Shown here: positions 4,255 through 21,861 of the stretch, piece by piece
Numbering within the stretch: position 1 is the stretch's first letter
Layout: each line of letters starts with the position of its first letter
NCBI GenBank assembly: GCA_041645165.1
Contig: JBAZQN010000001.1
Location: forward strand, 1-51,970
Source of the DNA: Patescibacteria group bacterium
GTDB taxonomy: Bacteria > Patescibacteriota > Patescibacteriia > 2-02-FULL-49-11
Reading direction: 5' to 3'
DNA: 51,970 bases
Made by a program: the position numbers and the translations under genes
The notes under the pieces: model-generated
The model's input: the letters and a program-made list of their open reading frames with translations, nothing else
Told to the model about the DNA's origin: nothing
Databases searched by the model: none

Positions 4255-5013
4255 ATGTCTTCATTACAAAAATTTATACTTTCATTAATAGGCGTGTTGG
4301 TGGTGGGCGGGGTGCTCGTGGTGGGCGCGGCGAGGATGGGGAAAGGGCCGTCGCGCATTGAGGTGTCTACGGCAGAACCGCAGGACCACTTTTCCATATC
4401 CGCGGAGGGCAAGGTGAGCGCAAAGCCGGACATTGCGGTGATGACTTTCGGCGTGGTGACGGAGAAACCCACGGTCGCGCAAGCCACCAAAGAGAATACC
4501 GACAAAATGAATGCAGTTATTAAGTCGGTAAAAGCGAATAGGGTAGCGGAGAAGGATATCAAGACTTCGCAGTACCAGCTCAATCCCGTGTACGAATACC
4601 CGCCCAACGGCAGGCCTTATATCCGCGGCTACTCCTTAAACCAGCAGATTGAGGTGAAGGTGCGCGATTTTGACACGATCGGCGATGTCATCGCGGCGGC
4701 GACCGGCGCAGGCGCCAATGAAGTGGGTTCGCTCCAATTTACCATTGATGAGCCTGATGCGTTAAAAACACAAGCGCGCAACGAAGCGATTGGAAAGGCG
4801 CGGGACAAGGCGCGCCAGATTGCGGACGAAGCAGGATTGAAGCTCGGGCGGCTTATTAATGTGAGCGAGTCAGGTGGTTATACGCCGCCGGTGCCGATGT
4901 ACGACCGCGCGTACATGCTGGAAGCGAAATCAGTTGGCTCTGTGGCGCCGGAAATTCAAGCAGGGGAGCAGGAGATTACGGTGACGGTGACGTTGGTGTA
5001 CGAAGTGGAGTAA
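4255..5013 (+). CDS. SIMPL/DUF541 (BP26-like) periplasmic protein, paralog 2
   Basis: FSISAEGKVSAKPDIAVMTFGV...QEITVTVTLVYEVE. Collinear with the upstream paralog. Confidence 0.8.
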   Translation: MSSLQKFILSLIGVLVVGGVLVVGAARMGKGPSRIEVSTAEPQDHFSISAEGKVSAKPDIAVMTFGVVTEKPTVAQATKENTDKMNAVIKSVKANRVAEKDIKTSQYQLNPVYEYPPNGRPYIRGYSLNQQIEVKVRDFDTIGDVIAAATGAGANEVGSLQFTIDEPDALKTQARNEAIGKARDKARQIADEAGLKLGRLINVSESGGYTPPVPMYDRAYMLEAKSVGSVAPEIQAGEQEITVTVTLVYEVE

Positions 5014-5971: not shown

Positions 5972-6328
5972 CTATGATTGCGGATCCTTTTCATTCTGTT
6001 CATCCTCCTTATTTTCTTTTGGCGTGTCTGGTTTGCTCTTCATCTCCTCCACCGTTTTCTTGATTTCATGGACGACGGTTTCCGCTTTCTCCTTCATCTC
6101 CGCGCCGACTCGCGTGAAATGCGCGCGATCAAGGTTTGCGTCTGCCGCACCTTCAAGGGGCACGATAATCCAGAGGATGAGATAAGCCAGCACACCGAAT
6201 CCTTGGAAGAGCGCAAGGAGCACAAAGGCAAGGCGGACGATGGTTGGATCAATGTTGAAATATACTGCAAGCCCGGCGCACACGCCGGCGATCATTTTAT
6301 TGTTACGAGAGCGGTATAGTTTTTTCAT
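5972..6328 (-). CDS. PspC-domain membrane protein
   Basis: [54 protein letters not shown] is a textbook PspC domain. Confidence 0.85.
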
Positions 6329-6442: not shown

Positions 6443-7864
6443 ATGAATAGAACTATTGTGAGTGAAACTACGGGTGCCATTGGCGCCACGGTGCTCCTGA
6501 AGGGATGGGTGCATGCGCGCCGGAATCTCGGAAAGATCGTATTTTTTGACGTGCGCGACCGGTCTGGCATCGTTCAGGCGGTGTGCGTGCCGAAAGAATT
6601 GGATCCCGCATCGGTGGACGCAGTGACCAAGATACGCCCGGAGTGGGTGGTGGAAATTGAAGGCGCGGTGCAGATGAGGCAGGAGAAGGACGTGAATCCG
6701 CTCATCCCCACCGGCAAGATAGAGGTCCTCGCAAAGCGCGTGGCGGTCCTCAATGAGGCGAAGACGCCACCGTTTGAAATCGACAAAGACACGAAAGGGA
6801 TTTCCGAAGAGTTGCGCCTGAAGTACCGCTACCTTGATTTGCGCAGCGACCGGATGCGGCGGAACATGCTCATGCGCTCCAAGATGATGCACTATGTGCG
6901 GAGTTACTTGCGCGAGAGGGGATTTACCGAAATCCATACGCCCATGCTTTCCAAATCAACGCCGGAAGGAGCGCGCGACTATCTCGTGCCTTCGCGCAAA
7001 TACCACGGCAAGTTTTTTGCGCTCCCGCAATCTCCCCAGCAATACAAGCAGATGCTCATGGTGGCGGGATTTGAGCGGTATTTCCAGATCGCGCCCTGTT
7101 TCCGCGACGAGGACGCGCGCGCGGACCGCAGTCCCGGAGAATTCTACCAAGTGGACATGGAGATGAGCTTCGTGACGCAGGACGAGATCCTTGCGCTCAC
7201 CGAGCACATGTTCACCGCGATGGTGAAAGAGCTATGGCCTGAAAAACATTTCATGCAAGAGCCGTGGCCGCGGCTGAAGTACCAGGAGGTGATGGTGAAG
7301 TATGGCACGGACAAGCCTGATTTGCGCCGGAATAAAGAGGATATGAGTGAGCTCGCATTCGCATGGGTGCTTGATTTCCCTCTCTTCATGCGGCAGAGCA
7401 AAGAAGACTTCTTCTTCGGCGCAGGCAAGGTATGGGCGCCGTCCCATCATATGTTCACGGCACCCAAGGAAGAGGATGTGCCGCTTCTTGATACTGATCC
7501 CGGGAAGGCGAGGTCTTACCAGCATGATTTGGTCTTGAATGGGATTGAAGTGGGAGGCGGCAGCGTGCGGATTCACAGCGCCGCGCTCCAGGAGAAAATA
7601 TTTGACCTCATCGGATTTACTGCGGAGGACAAGAAGAAATTCGAACATCTTTTGCGCGCGTTTGAGTTCGGGGTGCCGCCCCACGGCGGCATTGCGCCGG
7701 GGTTTGACCGTCTGCTTGCTATCCTGCAGGGAGAAAAATCAATCCGCGAGGTGATTGCGTTCCCCTTGACCGCCGATGCCCGCGATCCGCTCATGGATTC
7801 GCCGAGTGAAGTGACGAGCGAGCAGTTGGAAGAATTGGGGATTAAGGTGGTTGAGGAAGCTTGA
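6443..7864 (+). CDS. aspS: Aspartate--tRNA ligase, bacterial type but lacking the GAD insertion domain (473 aa)
   Basis: OB-fold N-terminus (LKGWVHARRNLGKIVFFDVRDRSG), LRLKYRYLDLR, and motif 2 FRDEDARADRSPGEFYQVDMEMSF. GTDKPDLR is followed almost directly by WVLDFPLF. Motif 3 is GGIAPGFDRL. Confidence 0.9.
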   Translation: MNRTIVSETTGAIGATVLLKGWVHARRNLGKIVFFDVRDRSGIVQAVCVPKELDPASVDAVTKIRPEWVVEIEGAVQMRQEKDVNPLIPTGKIEVLAKRVAVLNEAKTPPFEIDKDTKGISEELRLKYRYLDLRSDRMRRNMLMRSKMMHYVRSYLRERGFTEIHTPMLSKSTPEGARDYLVPSRKYHGKFFALPQSPQQYKQMLMVAGFERYFQIAPCFRDEDARADRSPGEFYQVDMEMSFVTQDEILALTEHMFTAMVKELWPEKHFMQEPWPRLKYQEVMVKYGTDKPDLRRNKEDMSELAFAWVLDFPLFMRQSKEDFFFGAGKVWAPSHHMFTAPKEEDVPLLDTDPGKARSYQHDLVLNGIEVGGGSVRIHSAALQEKIFDLIGFTAEDKKKFEHLLRAFEFGVPPHGGIAPGFDRLLAILQGEKSIREVIAFPLTADARDPLMDSPSEVTSEQLEELGIKVVEEA

Positions 7865-15842: not shown

Positions 15843-16226
15843 ATGGTCGCAAAGTCATCGTTATATGGTTTTAGTTCCGGCATTGCGATTCTCATCGTAA
15901 TGGTGTTGGTGTTGGGCGCTATTGTTTGGGGTTTGTGGCCTCGGGGGAAGACCTTTGAGCAGGTGACCGGATGGAGACTGCCGTGGGATAAGGCCAGCTC
16001 GGAAACCGGACCCTCATCCGAGGACTCGTCCGGAGATTTTGTGAATATTCAGGAGCGATTACAGATCGAGGAATGGATTACCAAAAACAGACTCAACCAG
16101 TACGGCGATCCCGCGGATACGCTTTATGAAGGAGGCTCTCCCTTAATGGATGAAGCGACTGGAAAGCTCATGACGCGGTACGAGTATCTCTTTAAAAAAC
16201 ATCCCACGAGGCCGTGGAGGCAATAA
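15843..16226 (+). CDS. Hypothetical membrane-anchored protein (127 aa)
   Basis: One N-terminal TM segment (GIAILIVMVLVLGAIVWGLW). I recognised no family. The stop codon abuts tRNA-Trp. Confidence 0.5.
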   Translation: MVAKSSLYGFSSGIAILIVMVLVLGAIVWGLWPRGKTFEQVTGWRLPWDKASSETGPSSEDSSGDFVNIQERLQIEEWITKNRLNQYGDPADTLYEGGSPLMDEATGKLMTRYEYLFKKHPTRPWRQ

Positions 16227-16297
16227 GGGGGGTTCGTATAACGGTAGTACAATGGTCTCCAAAACCATTAGCGAGGGTCCGACTCCTTCACCCCCTG
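16227..16297 (+). tRNA. tRNA-Trp (anticodon CCA)
   Basis: Anticodon stem ATGGT/ACCAT with loop CTCCAAA, and T arm GAGGG-TCCGACT-CCTTC. Acceptor GGGGGGT/ACCCCCT has a G-T pair at 1-72. The discriminator is G. Confidence 0.8.
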
Positions 16298-16315
16298 AAT
16301 TTACATAGCAATAAC

Positions 16316-16339
16316 CCAGAGGTAATCCCTCTGGTTTTT
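16316..16339 (+). terminator. Rho-independent terminator after tRNA-Trp
   Basis: CCAGAGG-TAATC-CCTCTGG-TTTTT. Confidence 0.75.
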
Positions 16340-16376
16340 GATTTATTTAAGTATTATTATGGTATAATTTATTTGT

Positions 16377-18497
16377 ATGCACAGACATGGTATCTTGTTT
16401 TCTAAACCGACTATTATTTCCTTTTTAGCAATTTTAAGCATTGCTGGTATCGCAGTTTATGTGATCCAAACAAAAGAGCAGGGCCAAGTTGCCGGCGTCT
16501 GTTCCGCAAAATCAGTAACTTCCACCAGCTTCATCAAAACTTTTCACTTGCTTGATTTAACTGACGGTTTTGACATTTCATTCACTAAAGATGGCGGATA
16601 TTTGCTGACCGGCGACATTCTTCCGGCCTCTGGCATGGGAGCGCCAAAACCTTATATTATCCAAACCGATACTAAGGGGAATCCACTATGGAGCAGGCAG
16701 TTTAGCAGTAAAAGCATGGCTCTTGGGCTGATGTCGTCCCGGCGGATCGGGCGTCTCGCTCTAGAGACGATTGACGGCAATATTGTCACGGCCATCGATG
16801 TACTGGATTTTGTTGATGAAAACGTGAAAGAACTCTATGGCGATATTTTGGTGACCAAAATTAGTAAAAAGGGAACGCAGCTCTGGTCATTGATGCTTGG
16901 CGATTATAGTATAGATCGTCCGCAAAAAATATGGGCTTTATCGGATGGCGGTGTGTTGCTCCTTGCCCGTTTCATGCAAACCGGTTATGGCACTGATGTA
17001 GGCGATACTGATGCAGTGCCCAAGTATAGCGTTTTAATAAAAATTGATAAAAACGGGAAAGTGCAATTTGCAAAAAAATTGAATTGGGAAGCAGAGGATG
17101 TGCAATATTTAGCTGATGGCAGTTTTATCGCCTTGGCCAATATTGTTGTTCCAAAAACTGAACAGCCAGAAAATATTTTGGGGCAGGAGTTGGTTCCGCA
17201 CGCCTTGCCGACCGTTATAAAACTGGACAGTGATTTTAAAGTGGCGTGGGCGAAGAGCCTTGAGATGATTCCGTCGGAGATAAATGCTCCCACCAGTTAT
17301 TCTGGCAGCAGTTTTACCATGGGAAAAACCGCTATCCGCATGCCGGGCGGTGACTTTAGGGCGGTTCAGCCTGTGCCCGACGGCGGTTTTATTGCGTTCG
17401 GTTTTGGCGATTTAAGTCTAATTTCGGGGCTGATGACGGGATCAGCCAATACTATCAATAGTTTTTCCGCGCGATCATTGATCGCGGTCAAGGTCGATAA
17501 GGTAGGGAATTACAAATGGGCAAAAAAATTAACTGTAAATATGACCTCTAGCCCATCAAGTAATGATTTTCAGGTGATAAAAACTTTGGACGATTATTTT
17601 GTGATTATGCAGGATGTGGTGCGCGAGAGCGCAAAGGTGCAAGCGGCTGATTTTAATTTATCGCCAGAGGCATTGGCCTCAAATATTGAATTGATTAAAA
17701 CTGATGTCGATTTTAATCCGATGTGGGTGAAAAAAATTAATGCGGAACGGGATTTGTCAGGCTATGGCATCGCGCCGACAGCCGATAAGGGAGTTGTGAT
17801 TGCCAGCAGTATGCTCACCACTAAACAGCATATAGTAATGATGAGTCTGGAACCATATAAGGAGGCGGCTTTGATAAAAGTTGATGTCAATGGCGAGGTG
17901 CGCGGATGTCCCGGAGTAACGGATTACCGCGGGGCAACGGTGGAAGACCAAAGCAGCTATTTGGTGATGCAAAGTATGCAGGTCGATGGGGCTGAAAATA
18001 TGACGTTGCCTATTAATAAAAAGGTAAAAGAAAAGGTTTTCCTCATAAAAAATACGGCGCGAGACATTTGTAAATATCAAAAAAGTAGCGTAGCGCCAAA
18101 TTGTTCCGTTTCCCTACCGCTGACGTCAGGTCAGACAGTCACGCCGCCCACGCCCAAAACCTGGGCGCTGATCGGCTATGGAAACACCAAAGAAGTCGCA
18201 GTAGACGGCGAGAAGAACCAGGCTGTTCATAAAGAATTACTGCCAATACTTAACCAAATTTTCAATAACCAGGTGAAATTAAAAGATAGCATGAAAAGCA
18301 TGTGGCTCACCTATGTGTTCCCACGTCAGGTGACGCGCTCGGACGTGGAAGTCGTGCAGAAAAAATATGAGGAACTGGGCTACAAGATTGACCAGTCAGA
18401 AGGAGGCGTGCTGTGGGTTTCCAAGATTGGACTGACATTGCATCTGATTTTCTCTATTCAAAATTCCATGGTTGGAAAATTAGAAGTGTTATTTTAA
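16377..18497 (+). CDS. Large anchored/secreted repeat protein, beta-propeller-like (706 aa)
   Basis: N-terminal TM segment. Then recurring units of about 50-60 aa with DGG[YVF]-type strands and G-x3-W-x-K/R-x-L motifs (NPLWSRQF, TQLWSLML, KVQFAKKL, KVAWAKSL, YKWAKKL, NPMWVKKI). Visibly AT-richer than the flanks. Confidence 0.65.
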   Translation: MHRHGILFSKPTIISFLAILSIAGIAVYVIQTKEQGQVAGVCSAKSVTSTSFIKTFHLLDLTDGFDISFTKDGGYLLTGDILPASGMGAPKPYIIQTDTKGNPLWSRQFSSKSMALGLMSSRRIGRLALETIDGNIVTAIDVLDFVDENVKELYGDILVTKISKKGTQLWSLMLGDYSIDRPQKIWALSDGGVLLLARFMQTGYGTDVGDTDAVPKYSVLIKIDKNGKVQFAKKLNWEAEDVQYLADGSFIALANIVVPKTEQPENILGQELVPHALPTVIKLDSDFKVAWAKSLEMIPSEINAPTSYSGSSFTMGKTAIRMPGGDFRAVQPVPDGGFIAFGFGDLSLISGLMTGSANTINSFSARSLIAVKVDKVGNYKWAKKLTVNMTSSPSSNDFQVIKTLDDYFVIMQDVVRESAKVQAADFNLSPEALASNIELIKTDVDFNPMWVKKINAERDLSGYGIAPTADKGVVIASSMLTTKQHIVMMSLEPYKEAALIKVDVNGEVRGCPGVTDYRGATVEDQSSYLVMQSMQVDGAENMTLPINKKVKEKVFLIKNTARDICKYQKSSVAPNCSVSLPLTSGQTVTPPTPKTWALIGYGNTKEVAVDGEKNQAVHKELLPILNQIFNNQVKLKDSMKSMWLTYVFPRQVTRSDVEVVQKKYEELGYKIDQSEGGVLWVSKIGLTLHLIFSIQNSMVGKLEVLF

Positions 18498-18572
18498 CCT
18501 GACCCATCCCCGCAACAAAAATATTTTAACCTTAGTCAAAATTAGGTAGATATATATACCCTCGCCACTCCC

Positions 18573-18643
18573 GAATTCCAGTTCTAACATCGTCCACGAT
18601 GCCCTGAATTTACATGGCAATAACCCAGAGGTAACGTCTCTGG
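18573..18643 (+). repeat. tRNA-Trp 3'-end-derived repeat R1 (att-like) with hairpin
   Basis: 18602-18634 matches 16293-16325 (tRNA-Trp 3' end plus trailer) at 32 of 33 positions. 18573-18606 is identical to 19159-19192. Confidence 0.8.
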
Positions 18644-18734
18644 TTATTAGTTGATAAAATGATATAATGAATATGTACATATTTAGGTCGATCCCAAACA
18701 TCAAATTGAATCTTAATTTATTAACTTAAATACT

Positions 18735-19076
18735 ATGCATAAAACTAAAATTATTTCCGGATTTTTGATTTTTGAATTAATTTACACACTCATCAACATA
18801 TTACCAGAGCTATTAGTCACATTTGATCCTTCACAACTTATTTATTATGCACGTCTTTTCTTTATCCTAGCACTTTTATTGAGCGCCATAGGGATATATT
18901 TTCAAAAAAAATGGGCAGTTATCTCTCTTTGGATATATATACTTCATCCATTATTGATAGGATACTCGTTATATGTTGGCTTTGGTGGGTATTATTATAT
19001 AGTTGTTATCAATACAGCCATTGTCACATATTTGTCAGTTACTTGGAATTTATTTAGTAAAAAAGGTAATGTTTAA
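18735..19076 (+). CDS. Small polytopic membrane protein (113 aa), very AT-rich
   Basis: Three to four hydrophobic segments. I recognised no family. Confidence 0.5.
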   Translation: MHKTKIISGFLIFELIYTLINILPELLVTFDPSQLIYYARLFFILALLLSAIGIYFQKKWAVISLWIYILHPLLIGYSLYVGFGGYYYIVVINTAIVTYLSVTWNLFSKKGNV

Positions 19077-19158
19077 CAAACATGTACAATGATTAATATT
19101 TATAAATCTTATATGTATTGTATAGCTAAATTTGGTATATATAATTTTACTGATTGTT

Positions 19159-19223
19159 GAATTCCAGTTCTAACATCGTCCACGATGCCCTGCCATATTT
19201 CACCCCGATTCTTGGGGTGTTTT
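19159..19223 (+). repeat. tRNA-Trp 3'-end-derived repeat R2 plus terminator-like hairpin
   Basis: GAATTCCAGTTCTAACATCGTCCACGATGCCCTG is identical to R1. It is followed by CACCCC-GATTCTT-GGGGTG-TTTT. Confidence 0.75.
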
Positions 19224-19329
19224 GTGATAAGGGGAAAGGACTTGAAAGAGTATGCTGAGTGAAGCCACCAGGGCTTCGAATCGGAGTGAACAGGATTCCT
19301 CCCGTGCTCGTGTCTAAAGGGCGATTTGC

Positions 19330-19338
19330 TGGTATAAT
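19330..19338 (+). promoter_or_regulatory. Extended -10 promoter element TGGTATAAT
   Basis: It ends 9 nt before the ATG at 19348, implying a very short or absent leader. Confidence 0.4.
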
Positions 19339-19347
19339 GCAAAGACA

Positions 19348-21174
19348 ATGTCATTAATCGAACGACGTATGAAAAATGTTAAACCGACGACGCGCATACT
19401 AGCGGCATTTTTTATTATACTTGGCATAGCAGGGATGATTGCCTTACGGTATGCGATAAAAGTGTCGAACGATAAAAAAACAAATACCGATAGCCTCACC
19501 ATCAGTTTCAATAATCAAGGGTTGGTTCCTTTCGATACCATGGTAATCGAGGGCAAGAACCTTGATCCCCATGCTGCCACCTCCGTTATTTTTGATACGT
19601 ATACCAAGCAGACGCTCACTATACCGGCATTGAACGTGACGCCGACGACCGTGACCGTCGCGGTGCCGCCGCTCGCATTTAATAAAAATTCCGGCAAGTT
19701 CGGCCTTGATGTCGTGTCGTTCAGAGTTATTCAGGCAAAAAAAGATGGCGATACGTTGGCTGTCAAGTCCTCAAACACAGTGTCGGGCATTCAAGTGCTG
19801 GCCCCGGCGGTCCCGCGTGCCGTACAGATGGCACGCGCACAAGATCTGCCACCAGGCACGATCACGCGGGCATTTGCCGCCATGGCGCTCAAGAGCATTG
19901 ATTCATTGGCAGACCAGGCGCCGGTAGAAAACAAAGCATTAACTGCGTCGCTTGCCAACGCCCGCACGGAGATGGAACGCTTGCGTTCAGGCCTGGATGC
20001 ATTTATAAAAAATCCCCACACTACAGTTCGCCTTCAAACAGCCACAGGATCAACGGTAGCATTAAGCGCGGCGCAGATTGCCTGGCTCGACGCATTTTAT
20101 TCCGGCTTCCTTGGATCAATTGAGAAAAGCCAGCTGCAGGGGGAAGAAAAGAATTCGTTTTCTTTGAGTCCCGCCGCCATGGCGGCAGAGACAGATTGCT
20201 GGAGTCTTGGGGAGTCGGAACATGTTACCGCCGCGACGATCACCCGTCAGCTGGATTGCCTCTATAAAAAAACGTTCATCGATCAGGCCGGAAAAACAGA
20301 CGAAGAGATAACGACCGAAGCAAATGAATTGATGAAAAAACATCTGATACTGTTGGGGAGTATTAGTCTTGCCCTGGCCACGGGCGGGTTGAGTCTTGAG
20401 GCGCAGATTGCATATGGCATTACGTATTCCCTGGTGATGGAGTACCTGGTGAACAACAAGAATCCCGGTGTAAATTCCATTCCCGATGTCGGGGCAACCG
20501 TTATCGACACGATTCTAAAAACGCCCGCGGTGTTTCCCATCACCGGACTTTTCGTCGGCGTGTTAACCGCGTGCGATGAAGAATGCAAAAAAAATCCAAA
20601 GGCATGTTATACGTCCGATATTCTTATTACGGACCCTTTGAATCTGCGGGATTTATTATTTATAAAATATGGCACCCTTGACCATGACGTAGACCGATTC
20701 AAAACTCCGGAGGAATTTGAATCGTATTTGTATGGTGACAAAGGGATTGATAGCGGCGGCTATGAAACGGTGATCCCTCCGGCTCCGGTGCCGACTCCCT
20801 CTCCTACGCCGACGCCAACACCTGCCCCGGAACCTACACCACAACCAACGCCATCGCCGGCTCCCATAACCCCGGAACCGATCATCGATATAGTTCCCAC
20901 CCCTGCACCGACACCCACGCCGGTGCCGCCAGGCCCGAAATGTTCCCAACTGAAACAAACTGCGTATGATCAATGTGTTGCCGGCTGTGGCAATTCACAA
21001 GATTGCTACAGTGCCTATAGCGACTGCACGCCTGGGTGTGAGGGCACGGGAAATCTTTTTACCAAATCAGACTGTATAAACTCCTGTCTCGGGACGTTAT
21101 CAAAATGCACCGGAGCGGTATCAAAATGCAATGCTGATTGTTTGAAAGCCGAATATGCGTACACCTGTCCTTAA
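19348..21174 (+). CDS. Anchored surface protein with Pro/Thr linker and C-terminal Cys-rich module (608 aa)
   Basis: N-terminal TM segment, then an Ig/IPT-like stretch (MVIEGKNLDPHAATSVIFD...TVTVAVPP). The PT-rich linker is PPAPVPTPSPTPTPTPAPEPTPQPTPSPAP. The last 78 aa carry 12 Cys, including four CxxxC motifs. Confidence 0.65.
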   Translation: MSLIERRMKNVKPTTRILAAFFIILGIAGMIALRYAIKVSNDKKTNTDSLTISFNNQGLVPFDTMVIEGKNLDPHAATSVIFDTYTKQTLTIPALNVTPTTVTVAVPPLAFNKNSGKFGLDVVSFRVIQAKKDGDTLAVKSSNTVSGIQVLAPAVPRAVQMARAQDLPPGTITRAFAAMALKSIDSLADQAPVENKALTASLANARTEMERLRSGLDAFIKNPHTTVRLQTATGSTVALSAAQIAWLDAFYSGFLGSIEKSQLQGEEKNSFSLSPAAMAAETDCWSLGESEHVTAATITRQLDCLYKKTFIDQAGKTDEEITTEANELMKKHLILLGSISLALATGGLSLEAQIAYGITYSLVMEYLVNNKNPGVNSIPDVGATVIDTILKTPAVFPITGLFVGVLTACDEECKKNPKACYTSDILITDPLNLRDLLFIKYGTLDHDVDRFKTPEEFESYLYGDKGIDSGGYETVIPPAPVPTPSPTPTPTPAPEPTPQPTPSPAPITPEPIIDIVPTPAPTPTPVPPGPKCSQLKQTAYDQCVAGCGNSQDCYSAYSDCTPGCEGTGNLFTKSDCINSCLGTLSKCTGAVSKCNADCLKAEYAYTCP

Positions 21175-21200
21175 TTGTCCAGATATGAATGCATGACCTT

Positions 21201-21232
21201 AGTTCTCACATCCTTCACGATTCCCTGCCATA
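21201..21232 (+). repeat. tRNA-Trp 3'-end-derived repeat R3 (degenerate)
   Basis: AGTTCTCACATCCTTCACGATTCCCTGCCATA versus R2 AGTTCTAACATCGTCCACGATGCCCTGCCATA (28 of 32). ACATCCTTCAC..CCCTG resembles tRNA-Trp GACTCCTTCACCCCCTG. Confidence 0.6.
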
Positions 21233-21249
21233 CGATTATGGAAAATTAG

Positions 21250-21861
21250 GTGGATATGCTGCTCAACAAGATCGAATTCGCGGCCATGAATAATCCGGTG
21301 TGGGGCGCATTGCAGCGTTTGCTTGTGAGCAGCCGATGGCTTCCGCATTCTTCTCTTGTGCGCGCGCATCCCCGCATTTTGGAAATCGGATGCGGCAGCG
21401 GACGCGGCACACACGCGCTGTGGAAATTCTATTCACCGCGTGAAATATACGGCATTGATTTAGATGAACAGATGATTCAGAACGCGAAAAGATTCGAGAA
21501 GGAGAATGTTCATTTCGAAATAGGTAACGCCAGCCAATTGGAATTCCCCGACAATTCTTTTGATGCCGTATTCGATTCCGGCGTACTCCATCATTTGTCC
21601 GATTGGCGGGATTGCGTGCGAGAGTGCTATCGGGTCCTGAATCCGGGCGGCGTAATGTACATCATGGATTTTTCCATAGAGACTTTCACGTCTCCTGTCG
21701 GCAATATTCTTAAGCATTTTTCCGTGCACCCGTATCGCGAAATGTACCATGCACAGGAATTAGTTGAATATTTTAAGCAGGTTGGATTTGAAATTAGTCA
21801 TTATACACGACACAACTCTCTGCATCTACTGAAAAATTTCACGTTAATCGCAAAGAAATGA
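21250..21861 (+). CDS. Class I SAM-dependent methyltransferase (Methyltransf_11/25-like)
   Basis: Motif I is ILEIGCGSGRGT. The post-I motif is IYGIDLDEQM. Further on come FDAVFDSGVLHHL and LNPGGVMYIMDF. Confidence 0.8.
   Translation: MDMLLNKIEFAAMNNPVWGALQRLLVSSRWLPHSSLVRAHPRILEIGCGSGRGTHALWKFYSPREIYGIDLDEQMIQNAKRFEKENVHFEIGNASQLEFPDNSFDAVFDSGVLHHLSDWRDCVRECYRVLNPGGVMYIMDFSIETFTSPVGNILKHFSVHPYREMYHAQELVEYFKQVGFEISHYTRHNSLHLLKNFTLIAKK

Follow-up and report, generated by a model that had tools for sequence, protein, structure and literature searches.

What placed three envelope-protein genes, each followed by a copy of a short repeat, directly behind a tRNA-Trp gene in a groundwater Patescibacteria genome? 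The question is raised by a stretch of 51,970 nucleotides (contig JBAZQN010000001.1, assembly GCA_041645165.1; hereafter the window, always meaning this whole stretch), in which the genes and repeats form an island at positions 16298-21230. An earlier reading made from the letters alone (the sequence-only reading) had proposed serial site-specific integration at the tRNA 3' end, or a cassette array, and had taken the repeats for degenerate tRNA 3' ends. Our analysis indicates that the island is probably an accretion array of three single-gene cassettes, none with a recombinase, at the tRNA-Trp 3' end. The repeat, which we call the box, appears not to be a tRNA remnant but the left half of the site at which a large serine recombinase (LSR) attaches its element, made of the last ~25 codons of the enzyme's gene on the opposite strand.

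The repeats and the tRNA-Trp anchor

The anchor, the three boxes and the four junction sites of the island are as follows.

16227-16297, plus strand: tRNA-Trp(CCA), the array anchor; called by ARAGORN, by Rfam (tRNA, 55.5 bits) and from its sequence
18535-18606, minus strand: box copy 1, putative attP left arm; reverse strand reads QGIVDDVRTGIREWRGYIYLPNFD then stop; nhmmer E 1.5e-14, LSR-tail profile E 1.6e-8
19112-19195, minus strand: box copy 2, the 34-nt block then CCA; reverse strand reads WQGIVDDVRTGIQQSVKLYIPNLAIQYI then stop; nhmmer E 2.9e-14, LSR-tail profile E 9.7e-5
21174-21230, minus strand: box copy 3, degenerate and outermost; reverse strand reads WQGIVKDVRTKVMHSYLDN then stop; nhmmer E 1.2e-9, LSR-tail profile E 1.4e-3
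Site A, tRNA end at 16297: left side tRNA-Trp, right side trailer AATTTACAT...
Site B, 18606: left side box, right side trailer AATTTACAT...
Site C, 19192: left side box, right side CCATA...
Site D, 21227: left side degenerate box, right side CCATA...

The bases CCCTG (16293-16297) are the last five of tRNA-Trp, whose CCA end is not encoded in the gene, and they form the core common to every box. Together with the 49 nt of trailer behind them (16293-16346) they are repeated at 18602-18655 with 85% identity over 54 nt and 1 mismatch in the first 33 nt. The alignment score of 69, against a shuffle maximum of 24, bears out the earlier observation that the tRNA end and its trailer recur at 18602. 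The 34-mer GAATTCCAGTTCTAACATCGTCCACGATGCCCTG at 18573-18606 ends in CCCTG and recurs at 19159-19192 without a single difference, as had also been noted. A degenerate third copy lies at 21194-21227, its 27-nt core (21201-21227) matching at 23 of 27 positions, and CCATA directly follows both this copy and the second. The repeats seen from the letters alone are therefore real and far beyond chance, but the third had been placed seven bases too far right, at 21201-21232.

The 20-nt core pattern was matched three times in the window, where 0.01 matches are expected. No further box copies were found in the 52-kb window at ≤12 mismatches or by nhmmer. All copies in the window have a single orientation and stand behind a tRNA, a pattern unlike that of a miniature inverted-repeat transposable element or a generic repeat. 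Alignment of the four sites showed that A and B share their right sides, B and C their left sides, and C and D their left sides together with CCATA; CCCTG is all that is common to A-D.

The sequence-only reading had also likened the repeat core to the tRNA T-arm and acceptor strand with a 3-nt insertion. This likeness does not exceed chance: the local score is 16, and shuffled sequences average 15. The string TCCTTCAC, which the tRNA shares, is a Lys-codon variant of the box and is present also where tRNA-Trp lacks that string. We rejected the box as a decayed tRNA-Trp 3' half on these results.

They bear equally on a classical tyrosine-integrase island, whose repeats would be decayed direct repeats of the tRNA-Trp 3' end (attL/attR) from integrases of phage type. 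Such an island would account for the location at a tRNA 3' end and for the exact 16-20-nt copies of the tRNA-Trp 3' end that precede the first box in L005 and L007 (L005-L034 denote stretches from other genomes and metagenomes). However, the tRNA shares only the 5 nt CCCTG in the window where at least about 15 nt would be expected, the wider likeness being at chance, and no Phage_integrase domain was found in the window, the recombinase-domain scan having covered its open reading frames (ORFs) of at least 150 aa. The box moreover encodes a serine-recombinase tail (below) and is more conserved between genomes than their tRNA-Trp genes. We consider an island of this kind very improbable.

To the right of the outermost box, 21240-21262 reads ...AYPPNFP and stop on the reverse strand, and 16 of its 20 bases match the distal end (YLPNFD and stop) of the box at 18535-18560. 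The segment overlaps the start of a methyltransferase gene and gave no match with nhmmer; with low confidence, a fourth box may have left this segment behind as its stump.

The box as the 3' coding end of a serine recombinase gene

On its reverse strand the box reads (W)QGIV[EDKN]DVRT.I..Q..YIYIPDL followed by a stop, and the variable sites fall on every third base. Eight copies from seven genomes differ in this frame by 117 synonymous and 91 non-synonymous single-base codon differences, with 0 stops; in the remaining five frames the counts are 20-83 for synonymous differences and 6-16 for stops. The synonymous excess and the stop-free frame therefore indicate that the box descends from sequence under protein-coding constraint. 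A stop codon lies within a few codons upstream in most copies. The boxes in their present form are stranded 3' ends and not genes.

The box was also considered as a structured RNA or tRNA-like gene and rejected: Rfam returned only true tRNAs at E up to 1, and RNAalifold on 10 boxes gave −2.2 kcal/mol and 8 predicted pairs with no covariation or compensatory change.

A profile of the box peptide, searched against 1.84 billion representative proteins, gave 180 matches, mostly orphan ORFs of 24-90 aa. In a dozen matches of 120-195 aa the peptide stands at the extreme C-terminus, behind a region of LSR C-terminal type, and one database protein (P0074) combines the tail with a Resolvase domain (1e-10). 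The region preceding the tail was searched against longer proteins, with the query padded with X for the length filter and only real residues scored. It found 75 proteins (lowest E 7e-37). The majority are full-length, with about 490-520 aa, and the full-length relatives carry the domains Resolvase, Recombinase and Zn_ribbon_recom. When a profile was built from 13 database proteins, with no sequence from the window or the other loci, the window boxes ranked 1, 2 and 3 among 1888 six-frame segments. At the level of sequence comparison, the box is thus shown to consist of the final codons of a serine recombinase gene, attached to the tRNA-Trp core, and the enzyme class is therefore serine, not tyrosine. 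A direct search for full-length proteins with the tail gave only 3 candidates (208-661 aa), a scarcity that fits a tail split from its gene in integrated copies.

The C-termini of full-length LSRs of this family run to W-L-R and then to a stop or into antisense tRNA (QGSNLRPIA, SDSNRRPIG, VGIEPTT), and a few full-length or remnant genes have the tail [IL].[DN].[VF]RT beyond W-x-x. Elements of about 8-10 kb with this recombinase family stand at tRNA genes in L029 and L031. In both, the LSR gene stops within tRNA-Asn, which is on the other strand; its W codon coincides with the tRNA CCA, the codons after W are the antisense of the last bases of tRNA-Asn, and the last codons are the antisense acceptor stem. 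For tRNA-Asn only, this shows the loss of the integrated gene's own end to antisense tRNA. The two residues between W and tail fall into the classes LR, RG, GR, RD and QG, of which QG is the antisense of CCCTG, the tRNA-Trp end; the classes probably name the targeted tRNA.

Scans of IMG/VR for viral relatives with alignments of the LSR C-terminal region together with the tail gave pattern matches, none of which was confirmed as a relative.

Boxes, arrays and breakpoints in other genomes

A scan with a 21-base pattern returned 18 stretches, six from genomes (one genome per species) and 12 from metagenomes, where about 0.3 chance matches per collection were estimated from pattern length and collection size. 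All six stretches with an organism title are from Patescibacteria. tRNA-Trp is present in seven distinct loci, the window counted, and the box lies downstream of it on the tRNA strand in 7/7.

Weaker copies, found with a profile of box copies, revealed arrays. In L007, rpmG and tRNA-Trp are followed by five one-gene units, each closed by a box, and L014, L009 and L018 have two boxes each. Cargo genes stand on either strand (some on the opposite one in L005, L007 and L009), while the box orientation is always that of the tRNA.

The breakpoints were read from a 145-aa cassette that is 95-99% identical in L008, L012, L017 and L018 and then runs into four or five unrelated right sequences; identity stops within 1 nt of CCCTG. 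In L018 this cassette occurs twice, head to tail, exact from head to box; the box that closes copy 1 runs on into the head found after tRNA-Trp in L008. In L007 and L011 the sequence after the tRNA is near-identical to the sequence after the first box. Among relatives one and the same cassette has different right neighbours, with breaks at CCCTG. The orientation in seven loci and these breakpoints speak for what was first proposed, serial site-specific integration at the tRNA 3' end or a cassette array there.

The same data bear on an explanation without site-specific recombination, in which a module of box and hairpin, a repeated insulator between genes, would have spread by unequal homologous recombination or gene conversion. 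The 34-nt block that is 100% identical in two copies with differing flanks could be the product of gene conversion. A terminator-like hairpin after the boxes, the ordinary composition of cassette 3 and the wide occurrence of the 706-aa family in Patescibacteria (both below) would also suit it. Against this, the box is kept across distant genomes with mostly synonymous change, so it stems from functional recombinase genes. The tRNA-Trp anchoring in a single orientation at seven distinct loci and the breakpoints at CCCTG also tell against local spread, and homologous recombination works poorly on repeats as short as 27-54 nt with 71-85% identity. We regard local spread as improbable.

Several further observations were made in these loci. 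In L018 (1-590) the box of the second copy has CACGAGCCCCCTG in place of CACGATACCCTG, which disrupts the tail reading frame. In L011 the near-identical segments after tRNA-Trp and after the box lie 6.3 kb apart, at 570-630 and 6935-6995 (the latter equal to L006), and the 7-nt loop of their hairpin is flipped (CAAGCA-TGTAAAC-TGCTTG against CAAGCA-GTTTACA-TGCTTG). The exact 16-20-nt tRNA 3'-end copies of L005 (1312-1436) and L007 (6185-6371) stand between tRNA-Trp and the first cassette and flank gene-less inserts of 120-170 nt; the insert of L007 also contains an inverted tRNA-end-like piece, GGCGGAGGTAGGAATCGAAGGG. Three unrelated genomes have a palindromic ...ACGTCGTTCGCGAACGACGTGGCCTGCC... 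after the box (L009 542-600, L014 about 6160-6200, L016 about 4850-4920). From its sequence, this shared palindrome ACGTCGTTCGCGAACGACGTGGCCTGCC looks like a small mobile hairpin element inserted beside the core.

Cassette heads, promoters and cargo genes

The three cassettes of the island, with ORFs of 706, 113 and 608 aa as given in the sequence-only reading, are all present.

16298-16368, plus strand: head of cassette 1; trailer, hairpin at 16316-16334, extended -10 TGGTATAAT at 16360-16368; first 49 nt within the 85% repeat
16377-18497, plus strand: cargo gene 1, 706-aa membrane-anchored protein without a Pfam domain, of a widespread Patescibacteria family
18607-18668, plus strand: head of cassette 2; copy of the tRNA trailer, hairpin at 18625-18643, promoter TGATATAAT at 18660-18668
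18735-19076, plus strand: cargo gene 2, 113-aa polytopic membrane protein, strongly AT-rich (GC 0.289, z -4.0)
19193-19338, plus strand: head of cassette 3; CCATA, terminator-like hairpin at 19201-19219, promoter TGGTATAAT at 19330-19338
19348-21174, plus strand: cargo gene 3, 608-aa protein, membrane-anchored, Pro/Thr stalk, Cys-rich end (GC 0.504)

The hairpins reported after the tRNA and after two of the repeat copies were all recovered and are terminator-like. The extended -10 motif TGNTATAAT (TGnTATAAT) has 5 matches in the window, 3/5 of them at cassette heads, 9-67 nt before the three starts. With a head promoter and terminator-like hairpins, each gene is therefore a self-contained transcription unit. 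The heads were also considered as remnants of the recombinase region that precedes the tail and were rejected as such, the best E with a profile of 58 LSR C-terminal regions being 0.14.

This layout invites comparison with an integron-type array, in which the boxes would be attC sites, the tRNA end attI, and the enzyme an IntI-like tyrosine recombinase. One gene per cassette, a distal recombination site and insertion next to a fixed anchor all match. The box, however, lacks a conserved hairpin or covariation and is a serine-recombinase tail, each cassette has its own promoter, and genes stand in either orientation in other arrays. There is also no IntI beside the array and no Phage_integrase domain in the window, and we give an integron hardly any chance at all.

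All three cargo genes encode envelope proteins: the 706-, 113- and 608-aa ORFs have N-terminal or multiple membrane helices, and none of the three proteins matched a Pfam or NCBIfam family. The sequence-only reading had described all three genes as AT-richer than their surroundings. Against a mean GC per gene of 0.509 in the window (standard deviation 0.055), this is clearly so for the 113-aa gene; the 706-aa gene is mildly low (0.447, z -1.1) and the 608-aa gene is ordinary (z -0.1).

More than 100 Patescibacteria homologues of the 706-aa protein were found. In two other lineages orthologues with 65-68% identity adjoin secA, with no tRNA nearby (L032 7001-9106 and L034 118-2247), where they are divergent from secA and followed by a 214-aa gene and a 110-aa MamF_MmsF-like gene. 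The position behind tRNA-Trp in the window is therefore derived. The location of the 706-aa gene and the foreign composition of the 113-aa gene are evidence that cargo has been captured or displaced. We also considered whether the gene order of L032 and L034, with a small membrane protein next in line, is conserved behind cassettes 1 and 2, and rejected this, since the 113- and 608-aa proteins are unlike the neighbours there.

Proposed mechanism and its weak points

The attP of the mobile element would span the last ~25 codons of its recombinase gene, and the box would be the left (P) arm of that site. An exchange of [tRNA-Trp...CCCTG] with [box...CCCTG] would bring each cassette in, with the crossover within CCCTG(CCA) or just left of CCCTG. 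One end of the insert would then be [tRNA]-core-[element] and its other end [tail box]-core-[old flank]. The tail would thereby be stranded at the far end of the insert, and the enzyme's C-terminal tail would be replaced by antisense tRNA. Repetition of the exchange at the tRNA-proximal site would stack units, the newest next to the tRNA and older ones pushed outward, so that 21174-21230 would be the oldest scar. The sides shared among sites A-D are as stacking at the tRNA-proximal site predicts, and so is the near-identity after tRNA and first box in L007 and L011. Each cassette would be made up of a head with a terminator, a TGnTATAAT promoter of its own, a single gene for an envelope protein, and a box. 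The recombinase would either be supplied in trans, by another part of the genome or by a passing element, or have been lost.

The array might instead be debris, in which three full-size LSR elements or prophages integrated serially and were each deleted down to one gene and a tail, so that no small cassette was ever mobile here. The boxes are certainly tails of recombinase genes, and full-size elements of the same family, of about 8-10 kb, do stand at tRNA genes (L029, L031). Integrated elements often decay, and tycheposon islands are known to include integrase fragments and partial tRNAs (10.1101/2020.12.28.424599). What tells against debris is the minimal layout of short terminator head, promoter, single gene and box, of which there are three instances here, five in L007 and others in L014 and L018, none with any part of a recombinase except the tail. 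A large number of independent deletions would have had to share almost the same end points, and the tandem duplicate of L018 runs exactly from head to box. We judge debris unlikely. Because the minimal layout recurs without any recombinase fragment beyond the tail, it seems likely that small units were mobilised in trans, and many parallel deletions are given a low probability.

Several points weigh against an accretion array built in this way. None of the window ORFs of at least 150 aa is a recombinase and tblastn found nothing beyond the tails; the earlier statement that no integrase is present holds, with no Resolvase/Recombinase or Phage_integrase domain found. The integrated LSR examples that were read in DNA are at tRNA-Asn, and none of QG type was retrieved at tRNA-Trp. 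The right flanks showed no inverted partner of the left arm by inspection and no significant LSR-coding likeness. Relatives at about 92% identity have the same junction between tRNA and cassette 1. Contigs of the source sample have even depth (20.6-25) and show no excision joint anywhere in the array, and hence nothing points to present-day mobility; the Logan contigs end at the 34-nt repeat, and relatives are thinly covered. In L019, the tRNA that precedes a Trp-type box, by 1.3 kb, is tRNA-Arg and not tRNA-Trp. Finally, canonical serine integrases recombine attP only with attB, and repeated insertion where the right half has already been replaced is unlike textbook enzymes.

In L019 (1-1450) the box reads …CCCTGCCA, the 3' end of tRNA-Arg(TCT) is GAGGGCACCA, and the two intervening units start with a repeated AATAGTGAGTAGC.

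A bolder version of the accretion array would have Patescibacteria own a gene-cassette capture system built on an LSR. The tip of tRNA-Trp, and of other tRNAs, would correspond to the attI of integrons and the enzyme's last codons to attC, left arms would be essentially all that is read, and one-gene cassettes without a recombinase, each with a terminator and promoter, would be inserted, excised and reshuffled in trans, repeatedly at the same tRNA. Reading of the left arm only lies outside the accepted attP x attB rule. We put this forward tentatively, as a possibility that we doubt.

Setting and source

The window comes from a groundwater population of Patescibacteria, also called Candidate Phyla Radiation (CPR) bacteria, and the metagenome runs in which it is best represented are from groundwater. 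Contigs identical to it were found in one ENA assembly and one Logan assembly. The local order is tRNA-Thr, tRNA-Tyr, tRNA-Thr, rpmG, a 127-aa ORF, tRNA-Trp, the island and a class I methyltransferase. The 127-aa ORF abuts tRNA-Trp, ending at 16226. The tRNA itself (16227-16297) has an unusual T-loop, TCCGACT instead of TTCGAAT/TTCAAAT, and a G-T first acceptor pair. Neither secE nor nusG was found among window ORFs of at least 150 aa, a length below which secE normally falls.

Significance and comparison with known systems

Patescibacteria genomes are tiny and contain few recognised mobile elements, and to our knowledge no route by which these bacteria acquire genes for surface proteins has been described. 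If the proposed mechanism is true, one such route would be an LSR system in which single-gene cassettes, each expressed on its own, are stacked behind a tRNA. It would depart from the textbook in two ways, with an attachment site in the enzyme's coding end, so that the tail changes on integration, and with a site that is seemingly reused. One-sided site recognition, if real, could serve genome engineering. The identity of the box also explains hundreds of orphan ORFs of 25-90 aa in public CPR gene calls as stranded recombinase tails (180 cluster representatives). In a limited full-text literature search, no account of tRNA tips as targets of serine recombinases in CPR bacteria came up, and the array family seems to be undescribed.

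The closest enzymes are the large serine recombinases of phages and integrative elements, such as those of phiC31, Bxb1, A118/LI and SPbeta (SprA). The relatives of the tail-bearing enzyme have the same domains, Resolvase, Recombinase and Zn_ribbon_recom, and the hybrid sites likewise share only a very short core. A conserved GTTC motif is present both in the tRNA T-loop and in the box, where its distance from the core is 5 nt greater. This offset recalls the attP half-sites of LI integrase, which are reportedly 5 bp longer (work of Rutherford et al. from 2013). Unlike those systems, the target here is the tip of a tRNA gene, and the attP lies inside the enzyme's last codons, so that integration would exchange the protein tail. 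The one-gene arrays without a recombinase also imply reuse of a site with a changed right half, which canonical attP x attB recombination forbids.

Staphylococcal cassette chromosome (SCC) elements, including SCCmec, also use serine recombinases (CcrAB/CcrC) at one fixed chromosomal site and form tandem cassettes, some without a recombinase. Integration occurs at rlmH (PMC13739063), and a psi-SCC without recombinase is part of a three-element composite island (10.1101/336396). The SCC target is, however, the 3' end of the protein gene rlmH and not tRNA-Trp, and SCC units are tens of kb long with many genes where the present ones are single genes. The SCC att repeat is not the recombinase's coding end, and staphylococci belong to another phylum; only the mechanism is alike.

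Accretion at a tRNA is known from the tycheposons of Prochlorococcus, tRNA-anchored islands in which successive integrations push older elements outward and 27 of 937 elements use a large serine recombinase (10.1101/2020.12.28.424599). Tycheposons mostly have tyrosine recombinases, replication modules and partial-tRNA repeats, in contrast to the recombinase-tail repeat and single genes of the present array. The CIMEs (cis-mobilisable elements) of streptococci are flanked by att sites, lack an integrase, and can be mobilised by a related incoming element, standing in tandem with it. They differ in deriving from integrative and conjugative elements with a tyrosine integrase and true direct repeats. 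Integron cassettes are set apart by their enzyme class and folded attC, and the present cassettes by their own promoters and either gene orientation. The two resemble each other in being single genes with a recombination site at one end, stacked at a fixed anchor.

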